Of a stretch of 64,000 nucleotides of DNA, positions 7,393 to 64,000 are shown one piece after another. The position numbers were made by a program, and so were the translations under genes. Source of the DNA: Patescibacteria group bacterium (lineage in GTDB: Bacteria; Patescibacteriota; Minisyncoccia; UBA6257; GWB1-50-10); NCBI GenBank assembly GCA_040757555.1, contig JBFLWN010000006.1, positions 5,748 through 69,747 on the forward strand, in the 5' to 3' direction. Positions within the stretch are counted from its first letter, which is position 1, and every line of letters starts with the position of its first letter. The notes below the pieces were generated by a model. The model saw nothing but the letters and a program-made list of their open reading frames with translations. It did not search any database and was not told the origin of the DNA.

Positions 7393-8472
7393 ATGATCTT
7401 TATATTCAAAGATAATCCAGAGCGGATAAAGAATATAGAATTAAAAGAAAGTAAATTTAAACAGAAACTTCACTCGCATGTTCCTGATTTTTGTTTTGGT
7501 ACAAAATACCTAAAAAGAAAAAAAAGGGGGGAGGATCCGCTTGAATTTTTAAAAAGATATTCACGCCATTGGTTTTCCAATCTTGGGCGACATATCACGG
7601 CGCCGCTCGAAAAAGTAAAAATAGAGTGGAAAAGAAAATATATGATTTTCCCCTCGGTGATGAATGAGAAAGAGAGGGTGTTTTGTAAATACTCAATACA
7701 AAAAAGTGGCCCAGGAAAAAAAGTCGCACTTATTACGGTCATGCACTGGAACGGTATTCCGAAAGAATATGACGCACTCATTTCATTCGTGAGGAATCGA
7801 CTCTTGCCGTTAAGCACATTCTTGTTTATCCCCTCAAATCGCAAGGCCTCGTGGGGAATTAAAAAATCAATGGACTATGAAAGTGTGGGTCCAGATATTG
7901 GACATATGGTTTCGCGTTTCCAAAAAAATGTTTTCGACATACAACGTCTTGCGTGGATTTTAAAAAACGAACTTGGGTTTGATGAGGTGGGAATATTTTC
8001 TTTCAGTATGGGGACGTGTTATTCGTCTGTTGCGACAATGGGAAATCCATCGCTCTTTGATTTTGCGATTTTTCATCTTCTCGCGGATGATTTTCATAAA
8101 GCACTTATGAGCGGGGTTGGCACAACAAGAATAGCTGAAAAAATAAAGGGAAATGTGAAAGAAGAAGACCTCCATGAAATTTTAAAAATACTTTCCCCTG
8201 GAGCGTATGAGAAAAAACTAAAAAATCTCCCAAAACACACACGAATTGTCCAGGCAAAATATGATCACGTATTTTGTCCCGAAAACGTTACTACAATAAA
8301 CAAAAAAATACGGGCAGTTCGCCACGATATCGAAGTAGATATGGAACCATTGGGACACAACTGTCTTAATTCATTCCCATTGGGACTCAAGGTGCTCTAT
8401 AACGACATAAAATTCATTTATAAATACACTGGGATGAAAAAACATCCATTTCGCAAATTTTTCATCTCCTAA
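7393..8472 (+). CDS. alpha/beta-hydrolase-fold protein (putative esterase/lipase-like), function unknown
   Basis: Nucleophile-elbow-like FSFSMGT (small-x-Ser-x-small), followed in order by candidate acid (KYDHVF) and His (EPLGHNC) residues. The Ser-Asp-His order matches alpha/beta hydrolases. 359 aa. Confidence 0.4.
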   Translation: MIFIFKDNPERIKNIELKESKFKQKLHSHVPDFCFGTKYLKRKKRGEDPLEFLKRYSRHWFSNLGRHITAPLEKVKIEWKRKYMIFPSVMNEKERVFCKYSIQKSGPGKKVALITVMHWNGIPKEYDALISFVRNRLLPLSTFLFIPSNRKASWGIKKSMDYESVGPDIGHMVSRFQKNVFDIQRLAWILKNELGFDEVGIFSFSMGTCYSSVATMGNPSLFDFAIFHLLADDFHKALMSGVGTTRIAEKIKGNVKEEDLHEILKILSPGAYEKKLKNLPKHTRIVQAKYDHVFCPENVTTINKKIRAVRHDIEVDMEPLGHNCLNSFPLGLKVLYNDIKFIYKYTGMKKHPFRKFFIS

Positions 8473-22488: not shown

Positions 22489-25400
22489 TTATTTATTTTT
22501 CTTTATCGCAACTTTCATCGGCCACTCATCTATTTTGGTATCTATCTCCGCATGCAATATTTTTGGTTTCGAGAAAAGAATATTTTTCGCGTTTACTAAT
22601 TTCTTAAATTCAGTGTTCCATTTTGTTATCACAAACTTCAACTCCTCTGATGTTTCAATATATAACTCAATTACATCCTTTGGTTGTAATTTTGCGTCCT
22701 GACGTAAATCCTGAACAATCCTCGTAAGTTCGCGTAGCCACCCCTCTTCTTTTAATTCGTGGGTAATTACCGTATCGAGCACCATGTGGTCGTTTGTCTT
22801 CTCGGAAAAAATCACCTCTTTCACATTTATTTCATCTTTCAAAATATCAAGATACGCGTGTTTTCCTTTTAATAGCGATGTTTTTGAGTTGAGAGTAACC
22901 GAGGTAAGTGGTTGGCGCACCTTAATTCCTAACTCCGCACGTTTCGCAAGTGCGAGACTCGCCACAGCACGTACTTCATCCATACATGCAAATAAATCTT
23001 TATCAATAAACTTCTTTTGTGCTGTTGGCCACTCATCCAAGTGCACGGAAAGTTTTTTTCCGATAAGTGACTGATAGAGCGCCTCCGTAAAAAATGGGGT
23101 AAGCGGTGCCATAAGTTTACTTATTTCGAGAAGGACAAATCCAAGTACGCGTGTGGCGATTTCATAATCTTTCTTATTCTCGGGTTTTTGGAATCGCTTT
23201 CGTGAGCGTCGGATATACCACCTCGAAAGATCATCAACAAACGATTCGATTGCCTTTCCTGCGCTTCCGATATCATATGTTTCAAACCCCACTGTCGCCT
23301 TCTCGGTTGTTTCTGCAAATCTCCCCAATATCCACTTGTCGAGAAGCGGAAGGGACGCGGGAAGTGTTTTGTTTTTTACTTTTGCCCCATAAAGGTCGAA
23401 AAACACAAATGAATTATAGAGAAGTGAAAAAAGCTGGCGGGAAACCTTTCCGAGTTCCATTTCGTCAAAACGCTTTGATTCCCCCGGAGGATTTGTAGTA
23501 TAAAAATACCATCGTGCCGCATCGATACCATATTTTTTTATCATGTCCCACGGATCGACGATATTTCCTTTTGATTTGGACATTTTCTGCCCGTTCTTAT
23601 CGAGAATAAGCCCCGAAGAAATAACATTTTTAAACGGCGTCCCCTTTCCGGTAAGCACCCCAATTGCAAGAAGTGTATAAAACCATCCACGTGTTTGATC
23701 AATTCCTTCGGAGATATAATCCGCAGGGTAGGCAAGTTTATTTTTTTTATCGAATGGATAATGTGATTGTGCAAATGGCATTGCACCCGAATCAAACCAT
23801 ACATCAACTACTTCGGGTATTCGTTTCATAACTCCCTTGCATTTTTTACAAGGAAACTTAAATTCGTCGATAAATGGACGATGCAAGTCGAGTGATCCGG
23901 TCGCATCCCGCGGAACGTTTTTCATCATTCCCTTCTCGAATCCGGCATTTCTTATATAATCAAATCCTCTTTTTTCCTTTTCAATTAATTGATCTTCTGT
24001 GGACCATCCGCTGATAATGGAGTGGAGCATGTAGACGGGCCCATCGTGCGTCACCACAAGGATTGTTTTGTTTTTATATTTCTTTTCTGTCTCAATAAGA
24101 AATTCAAATAAACGTTTTCGCAAATCCGTATGATTTTCCCCATTCGGCATTCGTTTTGTGAATTTCTCTAAACGTGAACTATAATACGGCTGAAACGACT
24201 CATATTTTTTTCCATTGAAATCCCCAAAGTTGAATTCCCGAAGTCGCGCATCAAAGATGACCTTATCCTTAAATCCGACAATTTCCTTTACGGTCTCGGC
24301 GGTTTGTTTTGTTCGTGTTATATCCGAAGCAAAAATCATGTCTATTTTTTCTTTCTTCAGTATGCGCGCAGTTTTTTCCACCTGCGTTCTTCCCAAAAGT
24401 GTAAGTGGCAACTTCACCGGTTCGGGCCAACAATTCAACAAATGTTTTGTGTTATTCTCTGCCTGCCCATGACGCATAAAAATATACCGATTTGTCCCCC
24501 CTCCCAACGCCTCCTTAAACTCATCAACGCTCCCCACCACTCTCCGTGCCTCACATGAATCACACTCCCAGATTGGAAGTGGGGTGCCCCAATACCGTTC
24601 ACGAGATATTGCCCAATCTTTTACCTCACGAATCCATTCACCAAACCTTCCCTCTTTTAGATGACTGGGAACCCAATTTATTTTTTTGTTTTCAGTAATA
24701 AGTTTTTCCCTCAATGCACTCATCCCAATAAACCACGAACTGCGCGCATAATAGAGGAGCGCGGAATTGCAACGCCAGCAAAATGGATATTCGTGCTTAT
24801 ATTTTTCGGTTCGCAAGAAAAAATTCTTCTTTCTCAATGATTCAAATATTTTTTCATCTGTGTTTGGATTTTTTGCGGGCAATCCGGAAAATTCCTCAAT
24901 TTCTTCCACAAATCTTCCTTGTTCGTTCACTGTGTGGTATTCGGGTAGTCCAATTTTTTTCCCAAGCACATAATCATCCTCTCCATACATAACTGCAGTG
25001 TGCACCACACCAGTTCCGTCTGTTGTGGTAACAAAATCCGCAGCATATACTTTATAAGCTTTTTCTTTAGGGTCTATTTTTTTGATCGCGGGTATTTTGA
25101 ATAACGGCTCATACAAAAGCCCCACAAGATCTTTTCCTTTTATTTTTTCGATTTCGGTATATCCAATTTCGAGAATCGACAATCGCGGGGTTGCGAGAAT
25201 ATACGTTTCGGATATTTTTCCCTCTTTTATCGCCACAATCGAATAATCGACGTGTGGAGCGATTGCAAGCGCAATGTTTCCAGGAAGCGTCCATGGCGTG
25301 GTCGTCCAAGAAAGAATATAGGTATGTGGTCCCACTATTCTTTTTCCGATTTTCTGTTTTTCTTTTAATTTGAATTTCAAGTACACAGAGTTTTCCTCAA

Positions 25401-25995
25401 CCTCACGATACCCAAGTGCCAATTCGTGCGATGAGAGTCCAGTGCCACACCGAGGACACCACGGAACTACTTTGTGTCCACGGTATAATAATTTTTTTTC
25501 TGCAGTTGATTTAAAAATCCACCACAGTGTTTCTATATATGAGTTTTGATACGGAATATATGGGTCTTTGAGATCAAGCCAAAACCCCATTCGTTTGGTA
25601 AGCCTTTCCCACTCATCCTTATATTTCCACACCGATTCTTTGCATTTTTGGTTGAATTCGGCAATCCCAAATTTTTCAATCTCTTTTTTTGAGGAAAGGC
25701 CAAGTTGTTTTTCAACCTCAAGCTCAACGGGTAACCCATGCACATCCCACCCCCCTTTTCGCGGAACTACATATCCACGCATGGTTTTATATCGCAACAC
25801 CACATCCTTAAATGAGCGCGAAAGAACATGATGAATTCCCGGTTTTCCATTTGCTGTTGGGGGACCTTCATAAAAAACAAATTTTTTCCCCTTGTTTTTT
25901 GTAAGCGAGCGCTTAAAAATATCGTGTGCGTCCCAAAAATCAAGGACTTTTTCTTCGACGTCAGGAAGTGAAAATTTATCTAATCGTTTAAGCAT
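22489..25995 (-). CDS. ileS: isoleucyl-tRNA synthetase, type 2 (eukaryote/archaeal-like), with an inserted histidine-phosphatase-superfamily domain (ORF track extends to 26049; MLKRLDK at 25995 is the likely start)
   Basis: HIGH-region PPTANGKPGIHHVLS; CP1 editing domain; zinc knuckle WCPRCGT / CDSCEA; KMSKS. The DLHRPFIDE...CKKCKG...VDVWFDSGAMPFAQ block matches type 2 IleRS. An extra ~180 aa containing RHGQAENN ... VVTHDG sits between the zinc knuckle and DLHRP. Confidence 0.9.
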   Translation of the reverse strand: MLKRLDKFSLPDVEEKVLDFWDAHDIFKRSLTKNKGKKFVFYEGPPTANGKPGIHHVLSRSFKDVVLRYKTMRGYVVPRKGGWDVHGLPVELEVEKQLGLSSKKEIEKFGIAEFNQKCKESVWKYKDEWERLTKRMGFWLDLKDPYIPYQNSYIETLWWIFKSTAEKKLLYRGHKVVPWCPRCGTGLSSHELALGYREVEENSVYLKFKLKEKQKIGKRIVGPHTYILSWTTTPWTLPGNIALAIAPHVDYSIVAIKEGKISETYILATPRLSILEIGYTEIEKIKGKDLVGLLYEPLFKIPAIKKIDPKEKAYKVYAADFVTTTDGTGVVHTAVMYGEDDYVLGKKIGLPEYHTVNEQGRFVEEIEEFSGLPAKNPNTDEKIFESLRKKNFFLRTEKYKHEYPFCWRCNSALLYYARSSWFIGMSALREKLITENKKINWVPSHLKEGRFGEWIREVKDWAISRERYWGTPLPIWECDSCEARRVVGSVDEFKEALGGGTNRYIFMRHGQAENNTKHLLNCWPEPVKLPLTLLGRTQVEKTARILKKEKIDMIFASDITRTKQTAETVKEIVGFKDKVIFDARLREFNFGDFNGKKYESFQPYYSSRLEKFTKRMPNGENHTDLRKRLFEFLIETEKKYKNKTILVVTHDGPVYMLHSIISGWSTEDQLIEKEKRGFDYIRNAGFEKGMMKNVPRDATGSLDLHRPFIDEFKFPCKKCKGVMKRIPEVVDVWFDSGAMPFAQSHYPFDKKNKLAYPADYISEGIDQTRGWFYTLLAIGVLTGKGTPFKNVISSGLILDKNGQKMSKSKGNIVDPWDMIKKYGIDAARWYFYTTNPPGESKRFDEMELGKVSRQLFSLLYNSFVFFDLYGAKVKNKTLPASLPLLDKWILGRFAETTEKATVGFETYDIGSAGKAIESFVDDLSRWYIRRSRKRFQKPENKKDYEIATRVLGFVLLEISKLMAPLTPFFTEALYQSLIGKKLSVHLDEWPTAQKKFIDKDLFACMDEVRAVASLALAKRAELGIKVRQPLTSVTLNSKTSLLKGKHAYLDILKDEINVKEVIFSEKTNDHMVLDTVITHELKEEGWLRELTRIVQDLRQDAKLQPKDVIELYIETSEELKFVITKWNTEFKKLVNAKNILFSKPKILHAEIDTKIDEWPMKVAIKKNK

Positions 25996-26063
25996 AATTA
26001 TCAATTTTAGACGAAAAGAAGGCTTTTTACAAAAGCCTTCATTCCACACATTCCCCCCTGAGA

Positions 26064-43758: not shown

Positions 43759-44571
43759 TTATTTTTTTATTGCGAATTCAAGAAGTGCTTCTTCGTATCC
43801 TATTTTTCCGCTTTTCACCAACACGTCATAATTGGCAAATAAAAACGTTTCTGATCCCCTTACCAATGCCGAGACGAGATTAAAAAGGTGTGCGGGGGCT
43901 TCATTTTGTAAAAACGCTTTTTCAAGCGAAGAAAGACGCGTGGAAATATTTTTTTCATACACAATTCCTCGAGCAAGAGAAAATAATTCTTCGTGAGTGT
44001 GCACTTTAATATATTCGGAGAGGTTGTTTTTTTGTATTGGCATTGGAAGCTCTAAAAGTGATAATTTTTCCAATTCGTGAATTATGTGCCAGGAGAGATT
44101 GTGTTCACGGGAAATAATAAACGAAGTAAAAAGGTGTGACGCGTCTTCCATAAAAGAAATGTGCAATTCTTCTGATCTCTTTTTTATGAAACTCTGAAGT
44201 GGTTTTCCTTCCAATTCACAAAATTCCATTTTTTGTACACCCTCGGAAAGAAGAAAACCAAAATTCTTTGTTGGCTCTTCTTCTTCGGAAAGAAACGTAA
44301 ATACTTTTTCTGTTTTCAGTTGGGATCGAAGTGTGTTTATCCACTCGGGTTCCTCAATGGTTGTTGCGTGTTTTATTATCGCAACCTTGGAGTCGACAAA
44401 CATAGATGGCTGAGTTAAAAAGTCCCTCACTTTTTTCCAATCATCTTCATCCTCTTGTATGTCGACTTCAAGTATATCTGCGTTTTTATATTTCTTTTTG
44501 TATGGGTCAACAAGACGGTTTAGTTTTTCTCTCCGTCGATAAGAATCTGAACCATATAAACAGAACAACAT
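43759..44571 (-). CDS. holA: DNA polymerase III delta subunit (HolA)-like
   Basis: 270 aa. N-terminus MLFCLYGSDSY resembles holA starts (xxLxYGxDxxL). Three-domain clamp-loader delta size with an inactive AAA+-like fold and no Walker A. Moderate, memory-based. Confidence 0.5.
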   Translation of the reverse strand: MLFCLYGSDSYRRREKLNRLVDPYKKKYKNADILEVDIQEDEDDWKKVRDFLTQPSMFVDSKVAIIKHATTIEEPEWINTLRSQLKTEKVFTFLSEEEEPTKNFGFLLSEGVQKMEFCELEGKPLQSFIKKRSEELHISFMEDASHLFTSFIISREHNLSWHIIHELEKLSLLELPMPIQKNNLSEYIKVHTHEELFSLARGIVYEKNISTRLSSLEKAFLQNEAPAHLFNLVSALVRGSETFLFANYDVLVKSGKIGYEEALLEFAIKK

Positions 44572-44652: not shown

Positions 44653-46326
44653 ATGTTCCTCGCAAAAAAACTTCAAGAACAACTTCAAAAACAAAGAAAA
44701 ATTGCGGAGGAAAACGACGCAAAAAGGAGAGCAACACAACTCGGGATTCCCTATCTCGATCTTATTGGTTCGAAAACCCCAATTGAATTAAAGGCGCTTG
44801 GGGTAATAAAAGAAGAAGAAGCGAAAAAAGCACTTATTACTCCGTTTCAAATTGATCAAAAAAAACTCTTTGTTGCCGCATTTAACCCCGCGCTTCCCGA
44901 ATCAAAAACACTCATTGAGTCTTTAAAACAGAAATTTGAACTTCATATTGTGATCTCTTCAATGTTGTCGTTACACCATGGGTGGTCATATTACCAATAT
45001 GTGGGTGAGGTGAAAGAAATTTCGGGAAGTGTAGAAATCAACGAAGCACATATCAAGGAATTTCAATCAGAAATAAAAAGTCTTACTGATTTTTCCTCTG
45101 CACTAAAAAACTTCAAAAGCCCATATACCTCTCAAATTCTTGAGATTATTCTCGCGGGAGCAATGGCAATGAAAACATCAGATATTCATCTTGAACCAAG
45201 TGAAAACGAAAATTCACTCCGCCTTCGCGTCGATGGACTTCTCCATACTATTTTTTCAGAATTTACTCCTCTCGTATATAAATCGGTAGTTACACGCATA
45301 AAACTTCTCTCAAATTTAAAACTCAACATCCATAACGAAGCACAAGACGGACGATTCACCATACGACTAAGCGACCGCGACATCGAAGTTCGAACCTCGG
45401 TAATTCCTTCCGAATATGGCGAAACACTTGTACTCCGACTCCTTGATCCACTTTCCTTGAAAGCAAACCTGGAAGAATTAGGATGGCGCACTGACGATCT
45501 TGATATTATAAAAAAAGAAATTGATCGACCGAATGGACTTATTTTAAACACAGGACCCACCGGGTCTGGAAAAACTACCACACTCTATGCGTTTTTAAAA
45601 TATATTACCGATCCAGAAATAAAAATAATTACCATTGAAGACCCCATTGAATATCACCTCGAAGGAATTTCACAAACACAGGTTGATGCTGATGCAAATT
45701 ATACGTTCGCAAGCGGACTTCGTTCGATTTTACGTCAAGATCCCGACATTGTGCTCGTGGGAGAAATTAGAGACAAAGAGACCGCTGAAATTGCGATGAA
45801 TGCATCACTTACTGGACACTTAGTGTTTTCAACACTTCACACAAATGATGCGGTGGGCGCAATCCCCCGTCTTATCGATTTGGGTGCAAAAACACAAATT
45901 ATCGGACCTGCATTGAATCTCGTCATTGCGCAACGTCTCGTTCGTGTGCTTTGTCCAGAATGTAGAGTGCCCATCGCGATAAATGACGAACAAAAAGAAA
46001 AAATAAAAAACTTCATAGAAAAACTTCCGGCGCGCGTGGATAAAAAAGAATATGAAACATACACAATCTATGGACCAAAAGGATGCCCCGCGTGTGCAGG
46101 AATCGGATATAAAGGACGTATTTCAATATTCGAACTTTTTGCAATCTCGGAAAAAATAGAAGAATTAATTTACAAAAACCCAACTGAGCTTGAGTTAAAA
46201 GAAATTGCACAAAAAGAAGGAATGGTAATGCTCCAAGAAGATGGGTTCTTAAAGGTATTAAAAGGAAAAACAAGCATCGCTGAGGTGGAACGTTTGGCGG
46301 GAAAAATTGAGTGGCTGGAGGGATAG
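44653..46326 (+). CDS. pilB: type IV pilus / type II secretion assembly ATPase (PilB/GspE family)
   Basis: GspE N-terminal domain; Walker A ILNTGPTGSGKTTTLYAFL; Asp box; Walker B/His box VGEIRDKETAEIAMNASLTGHLVFSTLHTNDA; tetracysteine motif CPECRVP...CPACAG. 557 aa. Terminator gaggcaccataaaaaattttgtggtgct follows. Confidence 0.85.
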   Translation: MFLAKKLQEQLQKQRKIAEENDAKRRATQLGIPYLDLIGSKTPIELKALGVIKEEEAKKALITPFQIDQKKLFVAAFNPALPESKTLIESLKQKFELHIVISSMLSLHHGWSYYQYVGEVKEISGSVEINEAHIKEFQSEIKSLTDFSSALKNFKSPYTSQILEIILAGAMAMKTSDIHLEPSENENSLRLRVDGLLHTIFSEFTPLVYKSVVTRIKLLSNLKLNIHNEAQDGRFTIRLSDRDIEVRTSVIPSEYGETLVLRLLDPLSLKANLEELGWRTDDLDIIKKEIDRPNGLILNTGPTGSGKTTTLYAFLKYITDPEIKIITIEDPIEYHLEGISQTQVDADANYTFASGLRSILRQDPDIVLVGEIRDKETAEIAMNASLTGHLVFSTLHTNDAVGAIPRLIDLGAKTQIIGPALNLVIAQRLVRVLCPECRVPIAINDEQKEKIKNFIEKLPARVDKKEYETYTIYGPKGCPACAGIGYKGRISIFELFAISEKIEELIYKNPTELELKEIAQKEGMVMLQEDGFLKVLKGKTSIAEVERLAGKIEWLEG

Positions 46327-55646: not shown

Positions 55647-56762
55647 TTAGTTTTTTATAGGCATCGCAACATAAATTAATGATGGATCGGTTTGATTTTT
55701 TATGATAACCGGCCTATCTGAAGTGGTTACTCCAATAATAAGCTCATCACTCTTGAAAATTTTAAATCCATCGGACAAATACTTCCAATTAAACACGAGT
55801 GTGAAACGCTCCCCCTTTAAATGAATTGGCACCTTACATCTATTTTCTCCAAGTGCATTATCTGAAGAAAATAACTCAATATATTTTTTGTTTTCTCCGA
55901 CAGTAAGTGTAATATCGTTTCCCCTTCCTGAAAACGAACTGGTAAGTCGTATTGCGTTCAAAAATTCCTGTCGTGGAATAATTGCTTCGGTATGTGTTTG
56001 TTTTGGGATAATTGGTTGATAGTCGGGAAAGTTTCCATCAATAAGACGGGATATTATCTCAGTGCTCTGCGTTTTAAATAATATTTGTGTTGGATCTATA
56101 AAAACAAAAACCTCACCTTCTTCCTGGTTATGAAGAATTTTTAAGATCTCTTCGGAGGTTTTTAGTGGAATAATACACTTCACTGGTTCTACAAATGTTG
56201 ATTTTATAAATCCCGCATCTACCCTCTTCTCTGCGAGACGAAAACTATCGGTTCCCGCACATACCATTCCATATTCTTCGACTCCTACAAAAACACCACT
56301 AATTTCGGGTCGTATTTCTGAATATTGCGTTGCGACAATAACACTCTCTATTGTTTCGACAAGTGTTTTTGAATTTATCTGTAAACTTTGGGTTTTATTA
56401 TGAATTGAGGGAATAATCGGAAATTCTTTTATTTCTTGTGTTTGTACAAAAGCTTCATAATTATCCGTCTCTATAAACAGCTTTTTTCCTTTTGATTCCA
56501 GTGTAATTCGTTCAGAGGTTATATTTTTAATAATAGTACTGAAAAGATGTAGTGGTATTGCAACTTCTCCGTTCTCTATTATTTTTCCTGAAGATATATA
56601 CGTAATTGCCAATTCCAGGTTTGTCGTCGTAAAAACAATCTTGTTGTCATCTGTTCGTATATATACACATTTTAAAATTGGAAGATTTGAATTTTCTCCA
56701 ATCGCCCGATCGACGACACTAAGTGCTTCCAAAAGTTTATTTCTTAAAACAACGAGTTTCAT
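55647..56762 (-). CDS. dnaN: DNA polymerase III beta sliding clamp
   Basis: MKLVVLRNKLLEALSVVDRAI...LPILKCVYI is a canonical DnaN N-terminus. 371 aa three-domain size. Immediately downstream of dnaA on the same strand. Confidence 0.85.
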   Translation of the reverse strand: MKLVVLRNKLLEALSVVDRAIGENSNLPILKCVYIRTDDNKIVFTTTNLELAITYISSGKIIENGEVAIPLHLFSTIIKNITSERITLESKGKKLFIETDNYEAFVQTQEIKEFPIIPSIHNKTQSLQINSKTLVETIESVIVATQYSEIRPEISGVFVGVEEYGMVCAGTDSFRLAEKRVDAGFIKSTFVEPVKCIIPLKTSEEILKILHNQEEGEVFVFIDPTQILFKTQSTEIISRLIDGNFPDYQPIIPKQTHTEAIIPRQEFLNAIRLTSSFSGRGNDITLTVGENKKYIELFSSDNALGENRCKVPIHLKGERFTLVFNWKYLSDGFKIFKSDELIIGVTTSDRPVIIKNQTDPSLIYVAMPIKN

Positions 56763-56977
56763 ATTATTATTATTATTATTAAATATTTTTTATAAGATAA
56801 GAATAGTAGTGATAATAAGGGGTGTGTATATGTGGATATCTTTGTTTTTTCATACTCCATATCGTTTTTTTATCCACAAATAAAAAGAAGAAAATTCTAA
56901 AAGGTTGATATCATTTTGTTTAGTTTTGGTTTTTATGCAAAATACTTCCACTTATACCTTTTTTATACACAGGTTTT
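56763..56977. promoter_or_regulatory. putative replication origin (oriC) in the dnaA-dnaN spacer: DnaA boxes plus AT-rich (ATT)7 unwinding-element candidate
   Basis: Perfect DnaA box TTATCCACA at 56870-56878; TGTGGATAT (one mismatch from the reverse box TGTGGATAA) at 56831-56839; TTATACACA (one mismatch) at 56963-56971; (ATT)7 tandem repeat at ~56763-56783. A 215-bp AT-rich non-coding region in the classic dnaA-dnaN context. Confidence 0.6.
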
Positions 56978-58360
56978 CTACGACTTATACAACCGTTCCT
57001 TTATAAGCATTATTTTTTGATTAAATTGCTGATTTTTATTTATTTCTTTTTCTATTTTTTCACACGCATGAATTGCAGTCGTATGATCCCTTTTTCCCAA
57101 CTTTTCCCCAATGTGGGGATACGAGAGTTTCAATATATCCCTCAAAAGATACATTGCAATTTGACGGGGTTCCACCACTTCTTTTTTTCTACTTCGATCA
57201 GTAAGTTCTGCCTGAGAAACCTCAAAAAAGTCCGCAACCGCCTTAATAATTTCTTGAACAGTGAGGTTTTTTGATGTGGTTTGGGTTGTTTCGTTTATGA
57301 TTTCATCGAGTTTTTTTCCATCAATTCCATCCTTGTGTTGAATATAAAACACCACCTTATTTAATACCCCCTCCAATTCCCTGATGTTTTTTTGTACTTT
57401 TGAGGCAATGTGTTCAAGCACCTTATCTTCAACAACAATTCCTTTTCTTTGTGTTTTTGTTTTTAAAATTGCCAAACGCATCTCATAATCCGGATAACTA
57501 ATATCAGCAATCATTCCCCCCTCAAATCTCGAGCGTAGGCGCTCTTCAAGTGTCGGAATTGCAGAGGGCGGTCTATCAGAAGAGATAATAATTTGTTTGT
57601 TGTTTTCATAAAGTGCATTGAATGTATGAAAAAATTCTTGTTCGGTTGCGGCTTTCCCACCAATAAACTGAATGTCGTCGATAATAAGGACATCCACGTC
57701 TCTATATTTCTTTTTCATATCATCAATTCTTTTATTTCGAATACCAGAAACAACATCATTCAAAAATTTTTCTGAAGTTACGTACAGCACCGCAATATTT
57801 TTTTGATATTGTTTTATAATTTCATTTCCCACCCCTTGAATAAGATGAGTTTTTCCGAGTCCAACACCCCCATACACGAAAAGAGGATTATATTTTTTCC
57901 CAATATCTTTTATTACTGCTTGCATCGCTGCGTATGCAAGTTCGTTTGATGAGCCAACAATAAACGAATCAAGTGTATATCGTGGATTTAAGTTTGTTTT
58001 AGGATCAATTTTAAGTTCAAGGGGAAGTTGAAAATTTGATTCATTTTTTTCTTCATTTACCCCCTTTTTTGTTTGTGTTGCAAAAGAATTCGTCCCGCTA
58101 TTTGTTGTTTGGTGGGATACAGAGTAATCAATGTTTTTTATTGAGGGATCAAAATTTCGAAGTGATCCGAGAATGATTTTGTGATAGCGGTTTTTTACCC
58201 ACTCTTTCGCAAAGTTGTTTGGAAGACTTACGAGCGCCACCCCATCTCGTTCATTCTTTCCAATAAGCTGACTTTGTTTTAACCACGTAAGAAAATTTGG
58301 TCGCGAAATTTGCAATTCTATTTCTCCCAACACAGCCCTCCAAAGTTCTTGTGATTCCAT
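56978..58360 (-). CDS. dnaA: chromosomal replication initiator protein DnaA
   Basis: N-terminus MESQELWRAVLGEIELQISRPNFLTWL; AAA+ Walker A NPLFVYGGVGLGKTHL; C-terminal DNA-binding domain (MYLLRDILKLSYPHIGEKLGKRDHTTAIHACEKI). 460 aa. Confidence 0.9.
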   Translation of the reverse strand: MESQELWRAVLGEIELQISRPNFLTWLKQSQLIGKNERDGVALVSLPNNFAKEWVKNRYHKIILGSLRNFDPSIKNIDYSVSHQTTNSGTNSFATQTKKGVNEEKNESNFQLPLELKIDPKTNLNPRYTLDSFIVGSSNELAYAAMQAVIKDIGKKYNPLFVYGGVGLGKTHLIQGVGNEIIKQYQKNIAVLYVTSEKFLNDVVSGIRNKRIDDMKKKYRDVDVLIIDDIQFIGGKAATEQEFFHTFNALYENNKQIIISSDRPPSAIPTLEERLRSRFEGGMIADISYPDYEMRLAILKTKTQRKGIVVEDKVLEHIASKVQKNIRELEGVLNKVVFYIQHKDGIDGKKLDEIINETTQTTSKNLTVQEIIKAVADFFEVSQAELTDRSRKKEVVEPRQIAMYLLRDILKLSYPHIGEKLGKRDHTTAIHACEKIEKEINKNQQFNQKIMLIKERLYKS

Positions 58361-58502: not shown

Positions 58503-58637
58503 ATGAGTAGGACATATCAACCAAAAAAGAAGAAAAGAGCCAGAACACACGGGTTTTTGAAGAGATCGAAGACCCCAGGGGGAAGAAATGTACTGAAAAG
58601 AAGGAGGGCCCGAGGAAGAAAGAAGCTTTCAGTATAG
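58503..58637 (+). CDS. rpmH: 50S ribosomal protein L34 (44 aa, below ORF-track cutoff)
   Basis: [44 protein letters not shown] is canonical L34. Divergent from dnaA, the typical arrangement. Confidence 0.9.
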
Positions 58638-59577: not shown

Positions 59578-60006
59578 ATGGACAACATACTTGAATCAAT
59601 AAAAATTATCGTGGAAAAAATGGGATTTCCCGGTGCGGAAATATCATTTGATCAGGAACACAGAAAAATGTCTTTAGTGATAGACGAAAAACTCATACAC
59701 GAAAACATCGGTATGTTTTTACCCGCACTCGACCATCTTTTTGGTCTCGTGTTTAGAAAACACGAACAAGCACCATTTGTGCTTGATGTGAACTATTATC
59801 GGAGGGAGAGAGAGCGGTTAATTGCCGAACTCGCACGAGCATCCGCAAAGAAAGCAATGGTAACAAAAACAGACATCGAGTTGCCTCCAATGAATGGATA
59901 TGAACGAAGGTTGGTACACATGGAAATCACCACCCACCCAGAATTAAGAACAGAAAGTGTTGGGGAAGGAAAAGAACGAAGGGTGGTAATAAAACACATT
60001 GAATAA
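59578..60006 (+). CDS. jag: Jag/KhpB RNA-binding protein (KH-like plus R3H domains)
   Basis: C-terminal R3H motif (ELPPMNGYERRLVHMEITTHPELRTESVGEG) and synteny after yidC. Terminator atcccgatatatatcgggat plus T-tract at 60011-60038, bidirectional. Confidence 0.75.
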   Translation: MDNILESIKIIVEKMGFPGAEISFDQEHRKMSLVIDEKLIHENIGMFLPALDHLFGLVFRKHEQAPFVLDVNYYRRERERLIAELARASAKKAMVTKTDIELPPMNGYERRLVHMEITTHPELRTESVGEGKERRVVIKHIE

Positions 60007-60038
60007 AAAATCCCGATATATATCGGGATTTTTTATTG

Positions 60039-61241
60039 TTAAATTTCTTTTGATATATCAATTCGATAGAGGGTGTTATCAAATCGGTTTTTGAAATATA
60101 TATAATTCTCAAAAAACATTACCCCCGTCGCATCGGTTTTATAGGTGATAGCGGCAGATGCGCTTAACACCCCAATTTCTTTTGTTGAAAGATTAAATTT
60201 CATAAGTGTGTCGGTGGTAAATATTTTTCTTTGTTGATATGAATCGAAAAAACCAATATAGTCATTTTGTTCTTGCGGAACAAAACAATAGGTAGTGCTC
60301 GCAAATAAATCACACTTATCGGGGATTGTGAAAAAATCCACATAGGTTGTTGTTTTTAGTGAGTTGGTGATAAAACCAAGTTGTTTTTTTGACGGGATAG
60401 AGAAAAATATATTCTTTTTGTCTTTTGAAAAACCGGGTGTCCCTCCCCGTTCCGTTTGGACAACAAGTGATAGACTTTGATCTTTCTGATTGAATTCCCA
60501 CACCCTTGAAGGATAAAAACTACTTGATCTTTCAGAAAATAATATTCTGTCAGTCGGCACAACCGAAAGGAAAACATCGTTTAAAACAAAATCTTTTAAC
60601 AGTGTTTTGTATGTTGGTTGAGCCTTTTCAATATTTATTTCCACCAAATCTTTTTTCCCCGAGTTTTTGACTATTCCAAAAAGTTTTTTTTCCGAACCCC
60701 CCCACACCACACTTACCAAATCAGAAGAGAGGGGTTTCCATGTTTTATCAACTACATTAAATATTCCGGTTTGAAGATTGTTTTTTTCCCCGAATGATGC
60801 AAGTATTTTTTCTCCTGTTTGATTCGGAAGAAGCGCATATATTGTTCCTACGGCTTGTGGCGATATTTTTTGATCATCTTCTGTTTTTGCGAGATAGACA
60901 TCTCCATCGGAATTGGTATAGAAAATCTCGTTTGTCTTTTTATTTACCCAAAAATATCCAATTTCTTGGTCTGATAATTTTTCAAGTATTGGAAGAGTGT
61001 CTCCTTGTATTTCAGATGGTGACCCCTCGGTGTTTTCACTGCCAGCGCCCTCGGGAACATCTCCGTTGTTTGTGTTTGTAACAATATTTTCACTACCACC
61101 CGGAAGAGTGTTTATTTTTGTGTTATCTATTGATACGTCTTCAATTGGTGTTCCAAAGACGACCTTCCAAGCAAAATACAATCCTGCAATACAAACAATT
61201 CCAATAAGGGTAAGAACAATTATTTTTTTTGTTTTACTCAT
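60039..61241 (-). CDS. hypothetical membrane-anchored extracytoplasmic protein (last gene of the minus-strand operon at window end)
   Basis: 400 aa, N-terminal TM anchor IIVLTLIGIVCIAGLYFAW, followed by a low-complexity linker (NTNNGDVPEGAGSENTEGSPSE) and a beta-rich domain. 3-nt gap to the upstream gene. Confidence 0.35.
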   Translation of the reverse strand: MSKTKKIIVLTLIGIVCIAGLYFAWKVVFGTPIEDVSIDNTKINTLPGGSENIVTNTNNGDVPEGAGSENTEGSPSEIQGDTLPILEKLSDQEIGYFWVNKKTNEIFYTNSDGDVYLAKTEDDQKISPQAVGTIYALLPNQTGEKILASFGEKNNLQTGIFNVVDKTWKPLSSDLVSVVWGGSEKKLFGIVKNSGKKDLVEINIEKAQPTYKTLLKDFVLNDVFLSVVPTDRILFSERSSSFYPSRVWEFNQKDQSLSLVVQTERGGTPGFSKDKKNIFFSIPSKKQLGFITNSLKTTTYVDFFTIPDKCDLFASTTYCFVPQEQNDYIGFFDSYQQRKIFTTDTLMKFNLSTKEIGVLSASAAITYKTDATGVMFFENYIYFKNRFDNTLYRIDISKEI

Positions 61242-61244
61242 AAA

Positions 61245-62486
61245 TTATTTAAAATTAACATGTATATGTTCTACTTGTTCGTAATAATTACCACAATCTT
61301 TTGCGTACGAGCGATTTTGATATGTGGTGCATATTTTTGATATATTCGAGTTGTTATTTTTCAAATAATTCAAAAGTTGTGTGTTTGTTGATAAATCAAC
61401 AACTGGTTTGTCAGCCCCATGTGTTGCGTGTCCATTCTCTGCCCCCCCCGTTATTGTAACGTCACACGCACACGATTTTTTTATATTTATCACCGCATCG
61501 ATTGTTGAAGCCGGAAGGAGTCCGACGTTTGTGCACTTAGGATTAAATGGATCTGCACAATTTCCAGAACTACTCACACGCACTCCATTCAAAGCAAGTT
61601 TTTCAACTGCTTTTTTTTCTGCGGCATCCATACCAGTGGTATATGAAGTTTTTGTGTACTTACAATTCCCATCAAATCGGTTAATGATACAACATGTTTG
61701 ATTATGGTCCTTGTCCCATCCCCACCCATCATCATTACACTCTGCTTCGCCCCCATTTTGCTCTATTGCGAGGCAACAACTTATCCCATCTATATTTGGG
61801 TCGCTGGATGCTGCTTTTCGGCACTCTTCTTTTGAATCTTTATAACAATATCCCCACTCTGTTTTTGTGACTGGCTTATCTTCTGTTGAATATTTACATT
61901 CGCCAATAATTTTGTCTTTCAAACAACAACTTTTTTTACTTGCGTTGTCATATCCCCATCCGTCGGTTTGACATCGCGCTTGCCCCCCATTTACATCAAC
62001 CGCGACACAACAACTATCTTTTTTTTGTTCATCCCACTCCCAGACCTTTTCTGTAAGGACTTGAGAATTGCTAATAAATTGTGGACCCTGTGGTTCTCGA
62101 ATTGCAATAAGTTGCGGGTTTATTGTATTTAAAATGACATATGCACCAAAAAGCAGACCAAGCCCCCAGAGCGCAGAAAAAATCATATCCTTCCCCTCAT
62201 TTTGTTTATCAGGACTTCCCCCGGAAACCGTATATAATATTCCTCCTGCCACCATCATTCCAACAGCCAATATTCCCGATATACCAATTGCGAATTGATA
62301 AAGTCTTCGGATGTAATTGGGAATACTTGCGGTTGTGTCAGCAGAAGCACAATCAGTGTATCCGAGAACTTGTGTGCCAAAACTGGTACAAGGGAATTTA
62401 TAATCTATTATTGCCGCGTGTACAGTGAAACTAAACAAAAAGAACAAAACAAGAAAAAAGACTATTTTTAAATTTGATTTTGCCAT
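61245..62486 (-). CDS. secreted/membrane protein: TrbC/VirB2-like two-helix pilin-type module fused to a Cys-rich internally repeated extracellular domain
   Basis: Signal peptide (IVFFLVLFFLFSFTVHA). Hydrophobic hairpin FAIGISGILAVGMMVAGGILYTVSGG-SPDKQNEGKD-MIFSALWGLGLLFGAYVILNTI with Gly-rich packing faces like VirB2/TrbC pilins. Then two tandem repeats SCCVAVDVNGGQARCQTDGWGYD / SCCLAIEQNGGEAECNDDGWGWD and further Cys pairs. 413 aa. Confidence 0.4.
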   Translation of the reverse strand: MAKSNLKIVFFLVLFFLFSFTVHAAIIDYKFPCTSFGTQVLGYTDCASADTTASIPNYIRRLYQFAIGISGILAVGMMVAGGILYTVSGGSPDKQNEGKDMIFSALWGLGLLFGAYVILNTINPQLIAIREPQGPQFISNSQVLTEKVWEWDEQKKDSCCVAVDVNGGQARCQTDGWGYDNASKKSCCLKDKIIGECKYSTEDKPVTKTEWGYCYKDSKEECRKAASSDPNIDGISCCLAIEQNGGEAECNDDGWGWDKDHNQTCCIINRFDGNCKYTKTSYTTGMDAAEKKAVEKLALNGVRVSSSGNCADPFNPKCTNVGLLPASTIDAVINIKKSCACDVTITGGAENGHATHGADKPVVDLSTNTQLLNYLKNNNSNISKICTTYQNRSYAKDCGNYYEQVEHIHVNFK

Positions 62487-62488
62487 AA

Positions 62489-63160
62489 TTATTGTATAAA
62501 AAGATTTATTTTTTCTTTCGCAGACTCGAGTCCATTTTTTACATTTTGAACAAACGCCTCAATCACCATATTTTTTTGATCCGGTGTTTTTGGGGAACCA
62601 ATATTTAGTGTAAGAAGGGTGTCGCGCGTCTCGTTTTGTTTTTCCCCATTAATTCGCCACAAAGAAGTGATTTCAGATGGAGAAGAGATATTGAAAAAAA
62701 ACGGAACAACCAAAAAAGTAACCCTTTCTCCCGAGGCAACAAGCCCTCTCGGATATTTATTTTCAATTGTTATTATTGGGTTAAAAACAGGAACAGAAAC
62801 AAGATTTTCATATTTATTTGTTTTTGTTTGGACAACAACACGCACAGAATGAGAACTCCTTCCGATTTTTGTTATAGGAAACGAGAACTCTTTTAATCCA
62901 ACACCCTTATTAGAAAACACACCATCGAGGAACCATGATATCTCAGCTTGAGAAATGTTTTGTATTTTTTTATTTATAAGAAGTTCCACAGAGACTGCGA
63001 TTATATTACCATTGGTTGGGAGTGGCTTTGCTTCAAAGTCTGCCGAAGTATAGTTGTCCGCGTGCCACGTGACGAGGAGGTTGTTTTCTGTTTGTCCAAA
63101 AACATTCGAGAAAACAAAAAAGAAGGAGAGGAATAAAACAAATAAAACTTTTACACTCAT
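62489..63160 (-). CDS. hypothetical secreted protein (signal peptide, beta-rich)
   Basis: Signal peptide MSVKVLFVLFLSFFFVFSNVFGQTE. 223 aa. 2-nt gap to the downstream gene, same operon. Confidence 0.35.
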   Translation of the reverse strand: MSVKVLFVLFLSFFFVFSNVFGQTENNLLVTWHADNYTSADFEAKPLPTNGNIIAVSVELLINKKIQNISQAEISWFLDGVFSNKGVGLKEFSFPITKIGRSSHSVRVVVQTKTNKYENLVSVPVFNPIITIENKYPRGLVASGERVTFLVVPFFFNISSPSEITSLWRINGEKQNETRDTLLTLNIGSPKTPDQKNMVIEAFVQNVKNGLESAKEKINLFIQ

Positions 63161-63182
63161 ATTTTCTATTATACAACAAAAA

Positions 63183-63614
63183 CTACTTTTTTATCGCTGA
63201 GCCAATTTTTCCACTCGCGACAGAGGCAATTTTTTGTGCTTTTGGGTTGTTTTCTATAAAAACAATAAGAAACCAAGCCGAAATTGCAAAAGGAAACATA
63301 CCTAGAATTGGAAATGAATTCATCATGTTTCCCCCAAGGCTTGATACCCACGTCCACACCCCACGAGCACCCTTCATAAAAATATAGAGTTGAAAAAACG
63401 CACCAACAGTAAGACTTATTGCACTTCCAATAAAAGAGGACACTTGCCCAAGAATGGGTATGGGGAACATAAGGTTTGCAAAAAAATCGATTAATTCTAC
63501 AAAAAAAAGAATGAGGGTTACTAGGATAAACTCTCCTGTTCCAAACATCTTTTTTCTTTCCCCGGTGTTTATCTCGGGTGTCTTTTTTTCTCCCCCTTTT
63601 ATTTCTTTTGGCAT
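63183..63614 (-). CDS. small polytopic membrane protein (3 TM), possible VirB3/VirB6-like accessory of the adjacent VirB4-like ATPase
   Basis: 143 aa with hydrophobic segments FILVTLILFFVELIDFFANLMFPIPIL, SSFIGSAISLTVGAFFQLYIF and FPILGMFPFAISAWFLIVFI. Starts 4 nt after the upstream ATPase-like gene. Confidence 0.35.
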   Translation of the reverse strand: MPKEIKGGEKKTPEINTGERKKMFGTGEFILVTLILFFVELIDFFANLMFPIPILGQVSSFIGSAISLTVGAFFQLYIFMKGARGVWTWVSSLGGNMMNSFPILGMFPFAISAWFLIVFIENNPKAQKIASVASGKIGSAIKK

Positions 63615-63617
63615 ATA

Positions 63618-64000
63618 TTACGACAACAATCCTTTTGTTTGTAGCACTTGTTCGGGGTTTGTAGTGATTATTTGGTCTTCAGTGTATGACGCAATGATTT
63701 TTATTGCTACATGTTTTAGTCCCGCAAAAAAGAGTCCTTCTCCTACCCCCGCCTCAAGAAGAAGTGATTGTTCGCCACTGGTTAAATCAAATGCTTGTGT
63801 TACCGCATCAATACTTGATGGAGACTGTTTTAAGAGTAGTTGTATTGAGGAATTAGTGACGATTGGTTTTCCATATTCTGATTTTAGGAAGTCCTCAACA
63901 TCTTGGGTTATGGTAGTAACCCCCAAATAATATTTCCTGGCGCGTTTTACCAACCCAAACAAAAATGACGCACTGTCTTTATATTTCATCATCCACCACG
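63618..64000 (-). CDS. C-terminal fragment of a VirB4/TrbE/TraC-like conjugative-type ATPase (gene continues beyond window end)
   Basis: C-terminal block ...YYLGVTTITQDVEDFL...PIVTNSSIQLLLKQSPSSIDAVTQAFDLTSGEQSLLLEAGVGEGLFF matches the VirB4 C-terminal pattern (ATQS...I.EN..TKIFLPN......LS..E..L) from memory. The ORF is open at the window edge, so 5' partial. Confidence 0.45.
   Translation of the reverse strand, partial: WWMMKYKDSASFLFGLVKRARKYYLGVTTITQDVEDFLKSEYGKPIVTNSSIQLLLKQSPSSIDAVTQAFDLTSGEQSLLLEAGVGEGLFFAGLKHVAIKIIASYTEDQIITTNPEQVLQTKGLLS

Follow-up and report, generated by a model that had tools for sequence, protein, structure and literature searches.

The closest described counterparts of the locus analyzed here are the type IV secretion systems (T4SSs) of Patescibacteria. 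In Southlakia epibionticum, Wang et al. (2023, PMC10633639) described a T4SS, SEML1_0006-0019, that is encoded next to dnaA and is essential for epibiotic growth. Its pilins are essential too, neither a coupling protein nor a relaxase belongs to it, and the gene that directly follows virB4, SEML1_0007, encodes a domain of the Hedgehog/DD-peptidase fold (Table S2 of that paper). Quinonero-Coronel et al. (2025, PMC12102498) found the VirB4 proteins of Patescibacteria to form a clade allied to MPF-FATA. TrsD, PrgI, VirB6 and PF18895 pilins are encoded near virB4 in these systems and a relaxase is absent; in Paceibacteria the T4SS was placed near dnaA, dnaN, rnpA and ksgA.

Here we analyzed a 64-kb stretch of Patescibacteria DNA (the window) that ends in five minus-strand genes. 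This region is very probably the end of a chromosomally fixed Patescibacteria-type T4SS that most likely serves host-contact-dependent transfer or uptake for episymbiosis and not conjugation. The initial annotation had proposed an undescribed system. The same T4SS type has been published in PMC10633639 and PMC12102498 and reviewed in PMC12857230; the five genes are the tail of a T4SS already described for CPR bacteria, and the system is therefore real but not new.

A VirB4-type operon at the window edge

The ORF listing of the window placed all five minus-strand ORFs at the positions given in Table 1, and the intervals calculated from these coordinates (3, 22, 2 and 3 nt) bear out the tight coupling of 2-22 nt initially described. 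The ORFs are real genes, with orthologues in the same order at five other loci, and the region makes up the part of a T4SS operon farthest from the promoter. Its bidirectional terminator, also annotated initially, is the perfect palindrome AATAAAAAATCCCGATATATATCGGGATTTTTTATT, located where the 400-aa gene and jag converge; it scored positive on both strands and is shared by the T4SS operon with rpmH-rnpA-yidC-jag, the operon that runs towards it.

Table 1. Positions of the T4SS genes, their subregions and the origin-proximal features in the window
Feature	Position	Strand	Remarks
VirB4-type T4SS ATPase, C-terminal 126 codons	63618..64000	-	gene continues past window end
143-aa small polytopic membrane protein	63183..63614	-	conserved T4SS-cluster subunit
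223-aa secreted protein, N-terminal signal-like segment	62489..63160	-	position conserved
413-aa fusion: signal peptide, VirB2-like pilin hairpin, Cys-rich repeats, LAS-peptidase-like domain	61245..62486	-	
Pilin hairpin, residues 52-122 of 413-aa protein	62121..62333	-	
Two tandem Cys-rich repeat units, ~residues 157-277	61656..62018	-	
C-terminal 130-aa domain, residues 284-413	61248..61637	-	putative Zn-dependent LAS-type peptidoglycan peptidase
400-aa TM-anchored beta-propeller protein	60039..61241	-	final operon gene
Bidirectional intrinsic terminator	60002..60037	.	16-bp stem, 4-nt loop, T and A runs on flanks
rpmH	58503-58637		followed by rnpA, yidC, jag
dnaA	56978-58360		Pfam domains of 95-96% identical orthologues
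DnaA-box cluster, probable oriC, in dnaA-dnaN spacer	56831..56971	.	~3.1 kb from operon end
dnaN	55647-56762		Pfam domains of 95-96% identical orthologues

Judged by its sequence matches, the edge gene is a VirB4 ATPase, consistent with the VirB4/TrbE-like C-terminus first reported. The fragment matches NCBIfam NF045971 (VirB4-like, CD1110 family; E 9e-18, profile positions 638-733 of 752) and Pfam PF19044 P-loop_TraG (28.2 bits, cut-off 25.8). Its identity to the C-termini of the ATPases of loci L001 (580 aa) and L007 (582 aa) is 98% and 97%, respectively. An FtsK/HerA identity was ruled out because the full-length L007 orthologue, at 370 bits, passes the NF045971 VirB4 cut-off of 325 bits.

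The relatives' loci compared (L001, L003-L005, L006-L008, L009 and L010) come from close and distant Jorgensenbacteria-like members of the class Paceibacteria that keep the module. Their T4SS genes form a single co-directional operon of ~13 kb. Upstream of VirB4 it encodes two unassigned proteins of about 250 and 480-500 aa whose N-termini are hydrophobic, a VirB6-like TrbL_3 protein, a further protein (about 420-450 aa), a PrgI/VirB3-like protein and a separate TrsD-like VirB4 N-domain protein (NCBIfam E 3e-9). Downstream, the 3-TM protein, the secreted protein, the pilin fusion (89% identity to the L001 orthologue) and the membrane-tethered beta-propeller are all conserved. Conservation of the cluster and a VirB6 analogue upstream of the ATPase, two points on which the initial annotation could be checked, were both found in the relatives. 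Given the 98% identity of the ATPase C-terminus, the source genome, which is likewise Jorgensenbacteria-like (class Paceibacteria), presumably carries the same upstream VirB6, PrgI and TrsD genes.

The cluster occupies a fixed site near the probable chromosomal origin

The perfect DnaA box TTATCCACA occurs once in the 64 kb, at 56870-56878 in the dnaA-dnaN spacer, and one-mismatch boxes at 56831 and 56963 fall within the same spacer. The T4SS cluster lies close to this probable chromosomal origin, as had been noted, and is flanked by ksgA and jag-yidC-rnpA/dnaA-dnaN in all relatives' loci compared.

This location bears on whether the genes belong to a present or recent conjugative element, either an ICE or a plasmid that has integrated, with its relaxase, coupling protein and integrase encoded beyond the sequence examined. 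The secretion machinery has its homologues among monoderm conjugation systems, the best NCBIfam matches being conjugal-transfer VirB4 families. VirD4-like genes occur in many Patescibacteria genomes, mostly far from virB4, and relaxases are rare (PMC12102498). However, the cluster keeps the same site although DnaA is ~70-95% and the accessory proteins are 18-34% identical, and a site shared across such divergent lineages indicates vertical inheritance. GC content is uniform, with no compositional anomaly. Relaxase, T4CP and integrase domains were absent from the window ORFs of at least 450 aa and several smaller ones, from the 7.7 kb of L007 that precede the cluster, and from the flanks of relatives. 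Moreover, the distant T4CP homologue of Southlakia is non-essential, whereas its T4SS is essential (PMC12102498). A conjugative element is highly improbable on this evidence, and the original description of a chromosomally fixed apparatus free of mobile-element hallmarks holds. The Patescibacteria-type T4SS lineage is nevertheless related to monoderm MPF-FATA conjugation machines. Since neither a relaxase nor a coupling protein accompanies the cluster in the sequence examined and the homologous system is essential for the epibiotic growth of S. epibionticum, host-contact-dependent transfer or uptake is the most likely function, by analogy with this one cultured Saccharimonadia species.

A pilin hairpin fused to a putative peptidase

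The 413-aa protein begins with a signal segment followed by a two-helix hairpin, located at residues 62-90 and 100-120 by hydropathy scan. Residues 52-122 match Pfam PF18895 T4SS_pilin above threshold (E 1e-9, 38.7 bits, cut-off 26.6), which upholds the VirB2/TrbC-type hairpin assigned previously; the score against PF04956 TrbC/VirB2 was 12 bits, far under its cut-off of 27.9. PF18895 is found in most of the 34 homologues, whose alignment reveals conservation of the hairpin and of the C-terminus, with a middle part that varies. The pilin model could be superposed on 8dfu_B (78 of 84 residues), although helical hairpins reach a similar Z with many unrelated helical proteins; the Ced-type conjugation pilus of Aeropyrum pernix was the best structural match.

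That match, together with weak NCBIfam matches of the orthologous ATPase to CedB (E 6e-11) and CedD, and the inability of CPR cells to make nucleotides (PMC10633639), could point to a T4SS-derived DNA-uptake machine, of the Helicobacter ComB or archaeal Ced type, importing host DNA as a nucleotide source. The CedB and CedD matches, however, are far under the cut-offs and reflect generic P-loop similarity, and no DNA-binding or nuclease component was recognized in the cluster. Natural transformation of Southlakia requires type IV pili and ComEC, and deletion of comEC removes competence while leaving viability unaffected, whereas the T4SS is essential (PMC12857230). We regard a DNA-uptake machine as very unlikely.

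The initial annotation had described the remainder of the 413-aa protein as a Cys-rich repeat ectodomain. This is partly correct. The protein has 22 Cys and contains an internally duplicated Cys-rich unit (residues 157-199 against 236-278, score 143), in whose self-alignment SCCVAVDVNGGQARCQTDGWGYD...CKY pairs with SCCLAIEQNGGEAECNDDGWGWD...CKY; the C-terminal third, however, is a separate conserved LAS-peptidase-like domain. In the homologue alignment the repeat is present in two copies in the window protein, P0001 and P0002, in one copy in P0003-P0008, and in none in P0009, P0010, P0013 and P0014. The structure model of this region is of low confidence (pLDDT <35).

By fold and motif, the C-terminal domain is a putative LAS-type peptidase. 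It has no sequence-level match in Pfam or the PDB, and Pfam holds no model for it, but its family comprises 849 representatives (clusters at 50% identity, E<=1e-3). Among the best 150 cluster representatives, E350 and H353 are each conserved in 149/150, H356 in 141/150, D364 in 149/149, H407 in 97/100 and H409 in 99/100. We found no description of a pilin-peptidase fusion in the literature searched; the joining of a recognizable pilin to what is probably a cell-wall-cutting enzyme domain is the feature here not found described.

An alternative view of the four genes after virB4 is that they are ordinary envelope or wall-remodeling genes that only happen to be in the T4SS operon, the hairpin anchoring a housekeeping peptidoglycan hydrolase without forming a pilus. 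A T4SS pilus in Patescibacteria is treated only as a potential structure in PMC12857230, a 290-aa extension on each subunit would be hard to fit in a VirB2-type helical filament, and the four genes have envelope genes around them in the window (yidC, PBP1 and murB). Yet the PF18895 match is above threshold, and hence specific and not that of a generic anchor; of the best 150 proteins in the family of the C-terminal domain, 124 have the same hairpin; even in deeply divergent lineages the four genes, spaced 2-22 nt apart, follow virB4 directly in an unchanged order; and no second pilin that could serve the T4SS was found in these clusters. We consider this explanation unlikely and favor a pilin that belongs to the T4SS.

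The remaining envelope proteins and a proposed mechanism

Hydropathy scans agreed with the 3-TM and signal-peptide proteins initially annotated. The 143-aa protein has a charged N-terminus and hydrophobic segments at 23-55, 61-80 and 100-122, and its orthologues directly after virB4 are 76, 62, 18 and 34% identical in L001, L007, L009 and L010. The 223-aa protein has a hydrophobic N-terminus (residues 1-24); its orthologues (222-225 aa) occupy the same position, are 84, 71, 29 and 34% identical in the same four loci, and share the motifs TW.A, PYFF..SS and W.I(N/D). Neither protein matched a family in Pfam, NCBIfam or PHROGs. The 400-aa protein, with a single N-terminal TM segment by hydropathy scan, consists of this TM anchor, a ~55-aa low-complexity linker and an extracytoplasmic beta-propeller; the anchor had been recognized earlier, the propeller fold had not. 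Roles for these three proteins are guesses from topology and fold.

In the mechanism we propose, VirB4 with TrsD and PrgI would dock on the VirB6-like channel and power assembly and translocation. The pilin hairpin would enter the membrane via Sec and be recruited by the machine, which would expose the disulfide-rich stalk and the zinc peptidase on the outer side of the cell. In that position the peptidase may cleave peptide bonds of peptidoglycan. Its target could be the wall of its own cell, opening a path for the apparatus in a VirB1-like role, or the host-cell wall at the contact site. The 223-aa protein and the propeller might act as extracellular scaffold or adhesion parts.

Comparison with known systems

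The putative peptidase shares with the LAS zinc metallopeptidases (MepA/M74, M15 D-Ala-D-Ala peptidases and M23) an H...D plus H-x-H pattern that is family-wide here. It differs in lacking detectable sequence similarity to them in Pfam or the PDB, in its H356-x7-D364 spacing as opposed to the usual H-x3-6-D, and in its extra invariant E350 and H353 and conserved cysteines. Its predicted extracytoplasmic location beside a T4SS is that of the VirB1 and PrgK/TraG-type wall hydrolases; VirB1-type enzymes, however, belong to the lytic transglycosylases or CHAP domains and not to the LAS peptidases. Like VirB2/TraA-type pilins (PF18895, PF04956; A. pernix 8dfu), the 413-aa protein has a signal peptide and then a two-helix hydrophobic hairpin, but it adds the 290-aa C-terminal extension to what in classical pilins is a protein of about 70-120 aa.

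As in MPF-FATA conjugative T4SSs (pCF10 Prg, pGO1 Trs and the CD1110-type CTn2), the best VirB4 match is the CD1110 family, TrsD-like, PrgI-like and TrbL/VirB6-like components are present, and the envelope is monoderm, without VirB7, VirB9 and VirB10. Unlike those systems, the one described here lacks a relaxase, T4CP, oriT and PrgB-type adhesin at its locus; it has a VirB2-like pilin, which Gram-positive MPF-FATA systems do not, and its locus is fixed and origin-proximal whereas theirs is on a mobile element.

In both the Southlakia/Patescibacteria T4SS and this locus, VirB4 is of the monoderm type and its TrsD-like N-domain is a protein of its own; the cluster also encodes VirB6-like and PrgI/VirB3-like proteins and a VirB2-like pilin of PF18895. 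Both lack a relaxase or coupling protein nearby, adjoin dnaA, dnaN, rnpA and ksgA on the chromosome, and have a protein with a LAS-fold domain (Hedgehog/DD-peptidase) encoded a short way downstream of virB4. Southlakia, however, encodes six short pilins of about 100-185 aa in an array, where a single recognizable pilin is found here, and has an accessory set of PEGA/Ig-like and prealbumin-like proteins in place of the 3-TM, 223-aa secreted and beta-propeller proteins. Its wall hydrolases are large separate proteins, SEML1_0006, which combines a lysozyme-like part with a cysteine peptidase, and the 1113-aa SEML1_0007, whereas the cluster here has no lysozyme-like gene and carries its LAS-like domain fused to the C-terminus of the pilin.

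An operon encoding a VirB4-type ATPase adjoins the probable chromosomal origin

The initial annotation proposed that the end of the window carries five minus-strand ORFs, led by a VirB4-like ATPase and lying next to the chromosomal origin. All five ORFs were recovered where they had been placed (see the table of features), with intergenic gaps of 3, 22, 2 and 3 nt. A hydropathy scan agreed with the topologies that had been assigned: the 143-aa protein has three hydrophobic segments, the 223-aa protein starts with a signal-like stretch, the 413-aa protein combines a signal with a two-helix hairpin, and the 400-aa protein is anchored by a single N-terminal segment. At its end the operon has a terminator that is common to it and the convergent jag gene. 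Directly alongside are dnaN, dnaA, rpmH, rnpA, yidC and jag. The sole perfect DnaA box within the 64 kb, TTATCCACA, is found in the dnaA-dnaN spacer together with two further boxes carrying one mismatch each, and this spacer is the probable location of oriC. The proposed position beside the origin therefore held. The rpmH gene, which precedes rnpA, is shorter than the length cut-off of the ORF list.

Features of the window and of three loci from relatives (L003, L007 and L009)
Feature	Sequence	Position	Strand	Remarks
VirB4 C-terminus ORF	window	63618 to window end	minus	126 visible codons
143-aa ORF	window	63183-63614	minus	
223-aa ORF	window	62489-63160	minus	
413-aa ORF (pilin fusion)	window	61245-62486	minus	
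400-aa ORF	window	60039-61241	minus	
Terminator	window	60002-60037	both	perfect palindrome, 16-bp stem, A and T runs either side; scored as terminator on both strands
rpmH	window	58503-58637		44 codons
Candidate oriC	window	56831-56971		dnaA-dnaN spacer; DnaA boxes
Perfect DnaA box	window	56870		
PilB/GspE-type ATPase	window	44653-46326	plus	
270-aa ORF	window	43759-44571	minus	
Isoleucyl/class-I tRNA synthetase	window	22489-26049	minus	1186 aa
359-aa ORF	window	7393-8472	plus	
LysM-Peptidase_M23 protein	L007	4364-5533	minus	
Inserted small gene	L003/L007	13654-14028		
Inserted small gene	L009	4606-4965		
Inserted small gene	L009	6360-6770		

The window holds the C-terminal 126 residues of the ATPase, and its full length was read from the orthologues of relatives. 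The fragment matched NCBIfam NF045971 (VirB4-like, CD1110 family) with an E-value of 9e-18, followed by Mbov_0397 VirB4 and TraC, and exceeded the cut-off of Pfam PF19044 (P-loop_TraG). It is 98% identical to the protein of the closest relative, L001, and 97% identical to that of L007. The full-length orthologue scored 370 bits against NF045971, for which the curated cut-off is 325 bits. An FtsK/HerA identity, the possibility on which the VirB4 claim was to be tried, was ruled out as the VirB4 families score far higher.

Genes upstream of virB4 lie beyond the window end and were read from relatives only. There they run in one direction and encode proteins of approximately 250 aa and 480-500 aa, a VirB6-like TrbL_3 protein (PF19590; 735-793 aa), a protein of approximately 420-450 aa, a VirB3-like PrgI protein (PF12666; 162 aa), a TraC-like/TrsD-like protein (216 aa; PF26593 TraC-like and NF041427 TrsD, E 3e-9), and VirB4 itself (580-582 aa). 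The 216-aa protein is the VirB4 N-domain as a separate gene. The genes matching PF26593/NF041427, PF12666 and PF19590 adjoin virB4 in L001, L003, L007, L009 and L010. Family searches with the approximately 250-, 497- and 421-aa upstream proteins of relatives gave nothing usable. Following virB4 are the genes for the 143-aa protein, the 223-aa protein, the pilin and the approximately 400-aa protein, then jag-yidC-rnpA and dnaA-dnaN. In some relatives small genes that are absent from L001 interrupt the operon; one encodes a 119-124-aa 23S_rRNA_IVP/bAvd-like four-helix-bundle protein. In L009, trsD and virB4 are also separated by a gene resembling a PDDEXK_3 nuclease.

The T4SS pilin is probably fused to a putative peptidase

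The 413-aa protein matched Pfam PF18895 (T4SS_pilin) over residues 52-122 with 38.7 bits, compared to a gathering threshold of 26.6. TrbC/VirB2 (PF04956) remained below threshold (12 bits versus 27.9, E 0.25). On these profile matches we assign the protein to PF18895, the sister family of PF04956, and not to PF04956 itself. Its gene is located two genes after virB4 and is the only match to an HMM of the lineage's hairpin, both within the 64 kb of the window and within every locus examined from relatives. No second pilin was found in these sequences using this HMM, which divergent pilins could escape. A different reading is that the envelope genes are housekeeping genes that merely share the operon, with the hairpin serving as a plain anchor. 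We consider this unlikely.

Alignment with 14 homologues divided the pilin fusion into the hairpin, a variable middle and a conserved C-terminal domain of approximately 130 residues (284-413). The protein contains 22 cysteines and one duplicated Cys-rich unit, and relatives have two, one or none of these units in the middle part. In the AlphaFold model the hairpin has a pLDDT of about 70-79 and the C-terminal domain of 64-92, while the Cys-rich part is modelled without confidence. A Foldseek search of the PDB with this model returned no match at E<=0.001.

Prior to modelling, the H...D and H-x-H residues of the C-terminal domain had led to the prediction that it is a LAS-type zinc peptidase. 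When this domain by itself served as query for an exhaustive HMMER search, it yielded 849 cluster representatives at E<=1e-3, a family of approximately 850 when counted as clusters at 50% identity. Among the best 150 of these representatives, the LAS-like motif of putative zinc-ligand and catalytic residues, H353/H356...D364 plus H407-x-H409 with H-x7-D spacing, is 94-100% conserved (H353 149/150, H356 141/150, D364 149/149, H407 97/100, H409 99/100), and E350 is retained in 149/150. In the same 150 the domain is nearly always C-terminal, and 124 carry an N-terminal pilin hairpin of the same type. The domain is also present in stand-alone secreted proteins of approximately 150 aa (P0140, P0166 and P0173), which have a signal peptide of another style; it is thus not confined to pilin fusions.

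Searches of curated families did not place the domain. Twelve members scanned against Pfam gave no relevant match, and none at E<=10. A 12-sequence profile found no LAS protein in the PDB, returning only a chance match to DapE at E 1, and a 40-sequence profile returned nothing. An hhalign comparison with a neighboring Peptidase_M23 protein was not significant (probability 0.2%). Membership of a curated LAS family was therefore not found by Pfam, PDB profiles or hhalign to M23. The conserved residues are consistent with the single pilin of this Jorgensenbacteria-like lineage being probably fused to a putative peptidoglycan peptidase. The literature searched made no reference to fusions of a pilin to a peptidase.

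In L007, the opposite strand carries a gene for a Peptidase_M23 protein, a LAS enzyme that also contains LysM, approximately 2 kb upstream of the T4SS cluster. This protein may act as another wall hydrolase tied to the T4SS locus.

Searches of Pfam, NCBIfam and PHROGs with the 143-, 223- and 400-aa proteins gave nothing usable. The 400-aa protein was modelled with a pLDDT of 80-90 across residues 86-300, and according to this model it is a β-propeller with a disordered stalk and a TM anchor.

The cluster is conserved at a fixed chromosomal site

The initial annotation regarded the cluster as chromosomally fixed and proposed that its conservation in relatives be checked. The gene order is kept in L001, L003-L005 and L007, and the much more distant L009 and L010 have an identical order from the VirB6-like gene to dnaN. 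Across the relatives' loci the cluster occupies the same site, between ksgA and jag-yidC-rnpA/dnaA-dnaN. Identity between the window and L009/L010 drops to 18-34% for the 143-, 223- and 400-aa proteins, and preservation of the order despite this divergence indicates that the module is old and vertically inherited. Recent horizontal acquisition was rejected, given the flat GC content of the region and the deep synteny.

Pilin identity to the window is 89% for L001 (JGI) and 56% for L003-L005 and L007. Between the window and L001 the four envelope proteins (60039-63614) are 76-89% identical, compared to 95-98% for housekeeping proteins and the ATPase. Surface-exposed parts are expected to diverge faster. 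The faster divergence of the envelope proteins and the varying number of Cys-rich units suggest diversifying pressure on exposed parts.

A true conjugative element would be expected to carry mobility genes. In L007 the T4SS cluster is preceded by ksgA/rsmA (recognized by its N-terminal sequence) and genes for a PaaX-like protein, the LysM-M23 peptidase and a ComM-type ATPase, and no relaxase, coupling protein or integrase was found upstream of the cluster. Likewise, the Pfam-scanned window ORFs and the relatives' flanks showed no T4SS-linked relaxase, coupling protein, integrase or recombinase, in agreement with the earlier statement that neither relaxase nor integrase is visible. The scan covered all window ORFs of at least 450 aa and several smaller ones, so that the verdict on mobility applies to the 64 kb and the relatives' flanks. 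On this evidence a conjugative element is extremely unlikely.

Every ORF of at least 450 aa, and several smaller ones, contained housekeeping domains; the 359- and 270-aa ORFs had no Pfam match at E<=1e-4. The 1186-aa tRNA synthetase has a histidine-phosphatase domain between the halves of its catalytic domain (His_Phos_1, E 5e-31, residues 523-685), which is unusual for an aminoacyl-tRNA synthetase. Approximately 14 kb from the T4SS operon is a PilB/GspE-type ATPase (PF00437 T2SSE, E 7e-116) that presumably belongs to type IV pilus machinery. CPR bacteria also use type IV pili for host contact and competence.

The window DnaA (56978-58360) is 100% identical to an NCBI MAG protein that bears the label "Patescibacteria group bacterium". 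Its nearest named relatives are Jorgensenbacteria or Paceibacterota (72-76% identity), and the L009 pilin protein is annotated as Candidatus Jorgensenbacteria. Locus L008 (CAZVSK010000023.1) is labelled as an uncultured Candidatus Saccharibacteria bacterium, and it shares 70% identity in the VirB6-like protein with L003, which is closely related to the window. Given the nearest named DnaA relatives, a Saccharibacteria affiliation was judged unlikely, and the L008 label is probably wrong.

Discussion

From the identities, order, conservation and topology of the components we infer a mechanism in which VirB4, TrsD and PrgI would power assembly on a VirB6-like channel. The pilin hairpin would be inserted by Sec and then recruited, which would place the stalk and peptidase outside the membrane, where they could cut peptidoglycan peptides of either the host wall or, in a VirB1-like role, the wall of the cell itself. 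The 223-aa secreted protein and the propeller could contribute to scaffolding or adhesion outside the cell. The apparatus would serve a host-contact function required for episymbiosis, rather than conjugation; a Ced/ComB-like DNA importer seems to us very unlikely.

A more specific proposal, which we put forward tentatively and regard as doubtful, is that the lineage's only T4SS pilin is a chimera whose hairpins assemble into a filament or stub, with a zinc peptidoglycan peptidase exposed on every subunit at the tip of a disulfide-rich stalk. This "wall-cutting pilus" would breach the host wall at the contact site. Its C-terminal domain would represent a large LAS-like family that lacks a Pfam model or PDB sequence match and in which at least 124 of the best 150 representatives are T4SS pilin fusions. 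If the fusion is functional, it provides a concrete, testable hypothesis for how T4SS machines cross or attack a cell wall, and would define a large enzyme family without a Pfam model.

Among the envelope machines of CPR bacteria, the T4SS belongs to the small number believed to underlie obligate episymbiosis, and it proved essential in the one species tested. In Southlakia epibionticum, SEML1_0006-0019 beside dnaA are essential for epibiotic growth as determined by Tn-seq (Wang et al. 2023, PMC10633639). That T4SS resembles Gram-positive conjugative T4SSs and has essential pilins, without a coupling protein and relaxase. A phylum survey (Quinonero-Coronel et al. 2025, PMC12102498) described a monophyletic VirB4 clade allied to MPF-FATA, with TrsD, PrgI/VirB3, VirB6 and PF18895/VirB2-like pilins near virB4. 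Relaxase is almost always absent, and in Paceibacteria and Microgenomatia the cluster is near dnaA, dnaN, rnpA and ksgA. A 2025 review (PMC12857230) restates this picture.

The window operon and its relatives match this type in their monoderm VirB4, TrsD/PrgI/VirB6-like neighbors, PF18895 pilin and origin-proximal site, and judged by its sequence the operon is the T4SS of Patescibacteria. The initial interpretation as a T4SS-derived, chromosomally fixed, non-conjugative and origin-proximal apparatus with a probable role in host interaction was correct and agrees with both studies (PMC10633639 and PMC12102498). The system is not undescribed, as had been suggested, since the same two studies had already published it. 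The window thus brings no new system, and shows that a Jorgensenbacteria-like lineage has a fixed extracellular module of four genes after the conserved core. The additions for which we found no description in the literature searched are modest: the fusion of the pilin to a LAS-like domain and the conserved distal module of four genes. In Southlakia an essential protein of 1113 aa with a Hedgehog/DD-peptidase-fold (LAS) domain is encoded directly after virB4 as a separate protein, and the pilins form a separate array of six, whereas the window lineage has one hairpin match, fused to the LAS-like domain.
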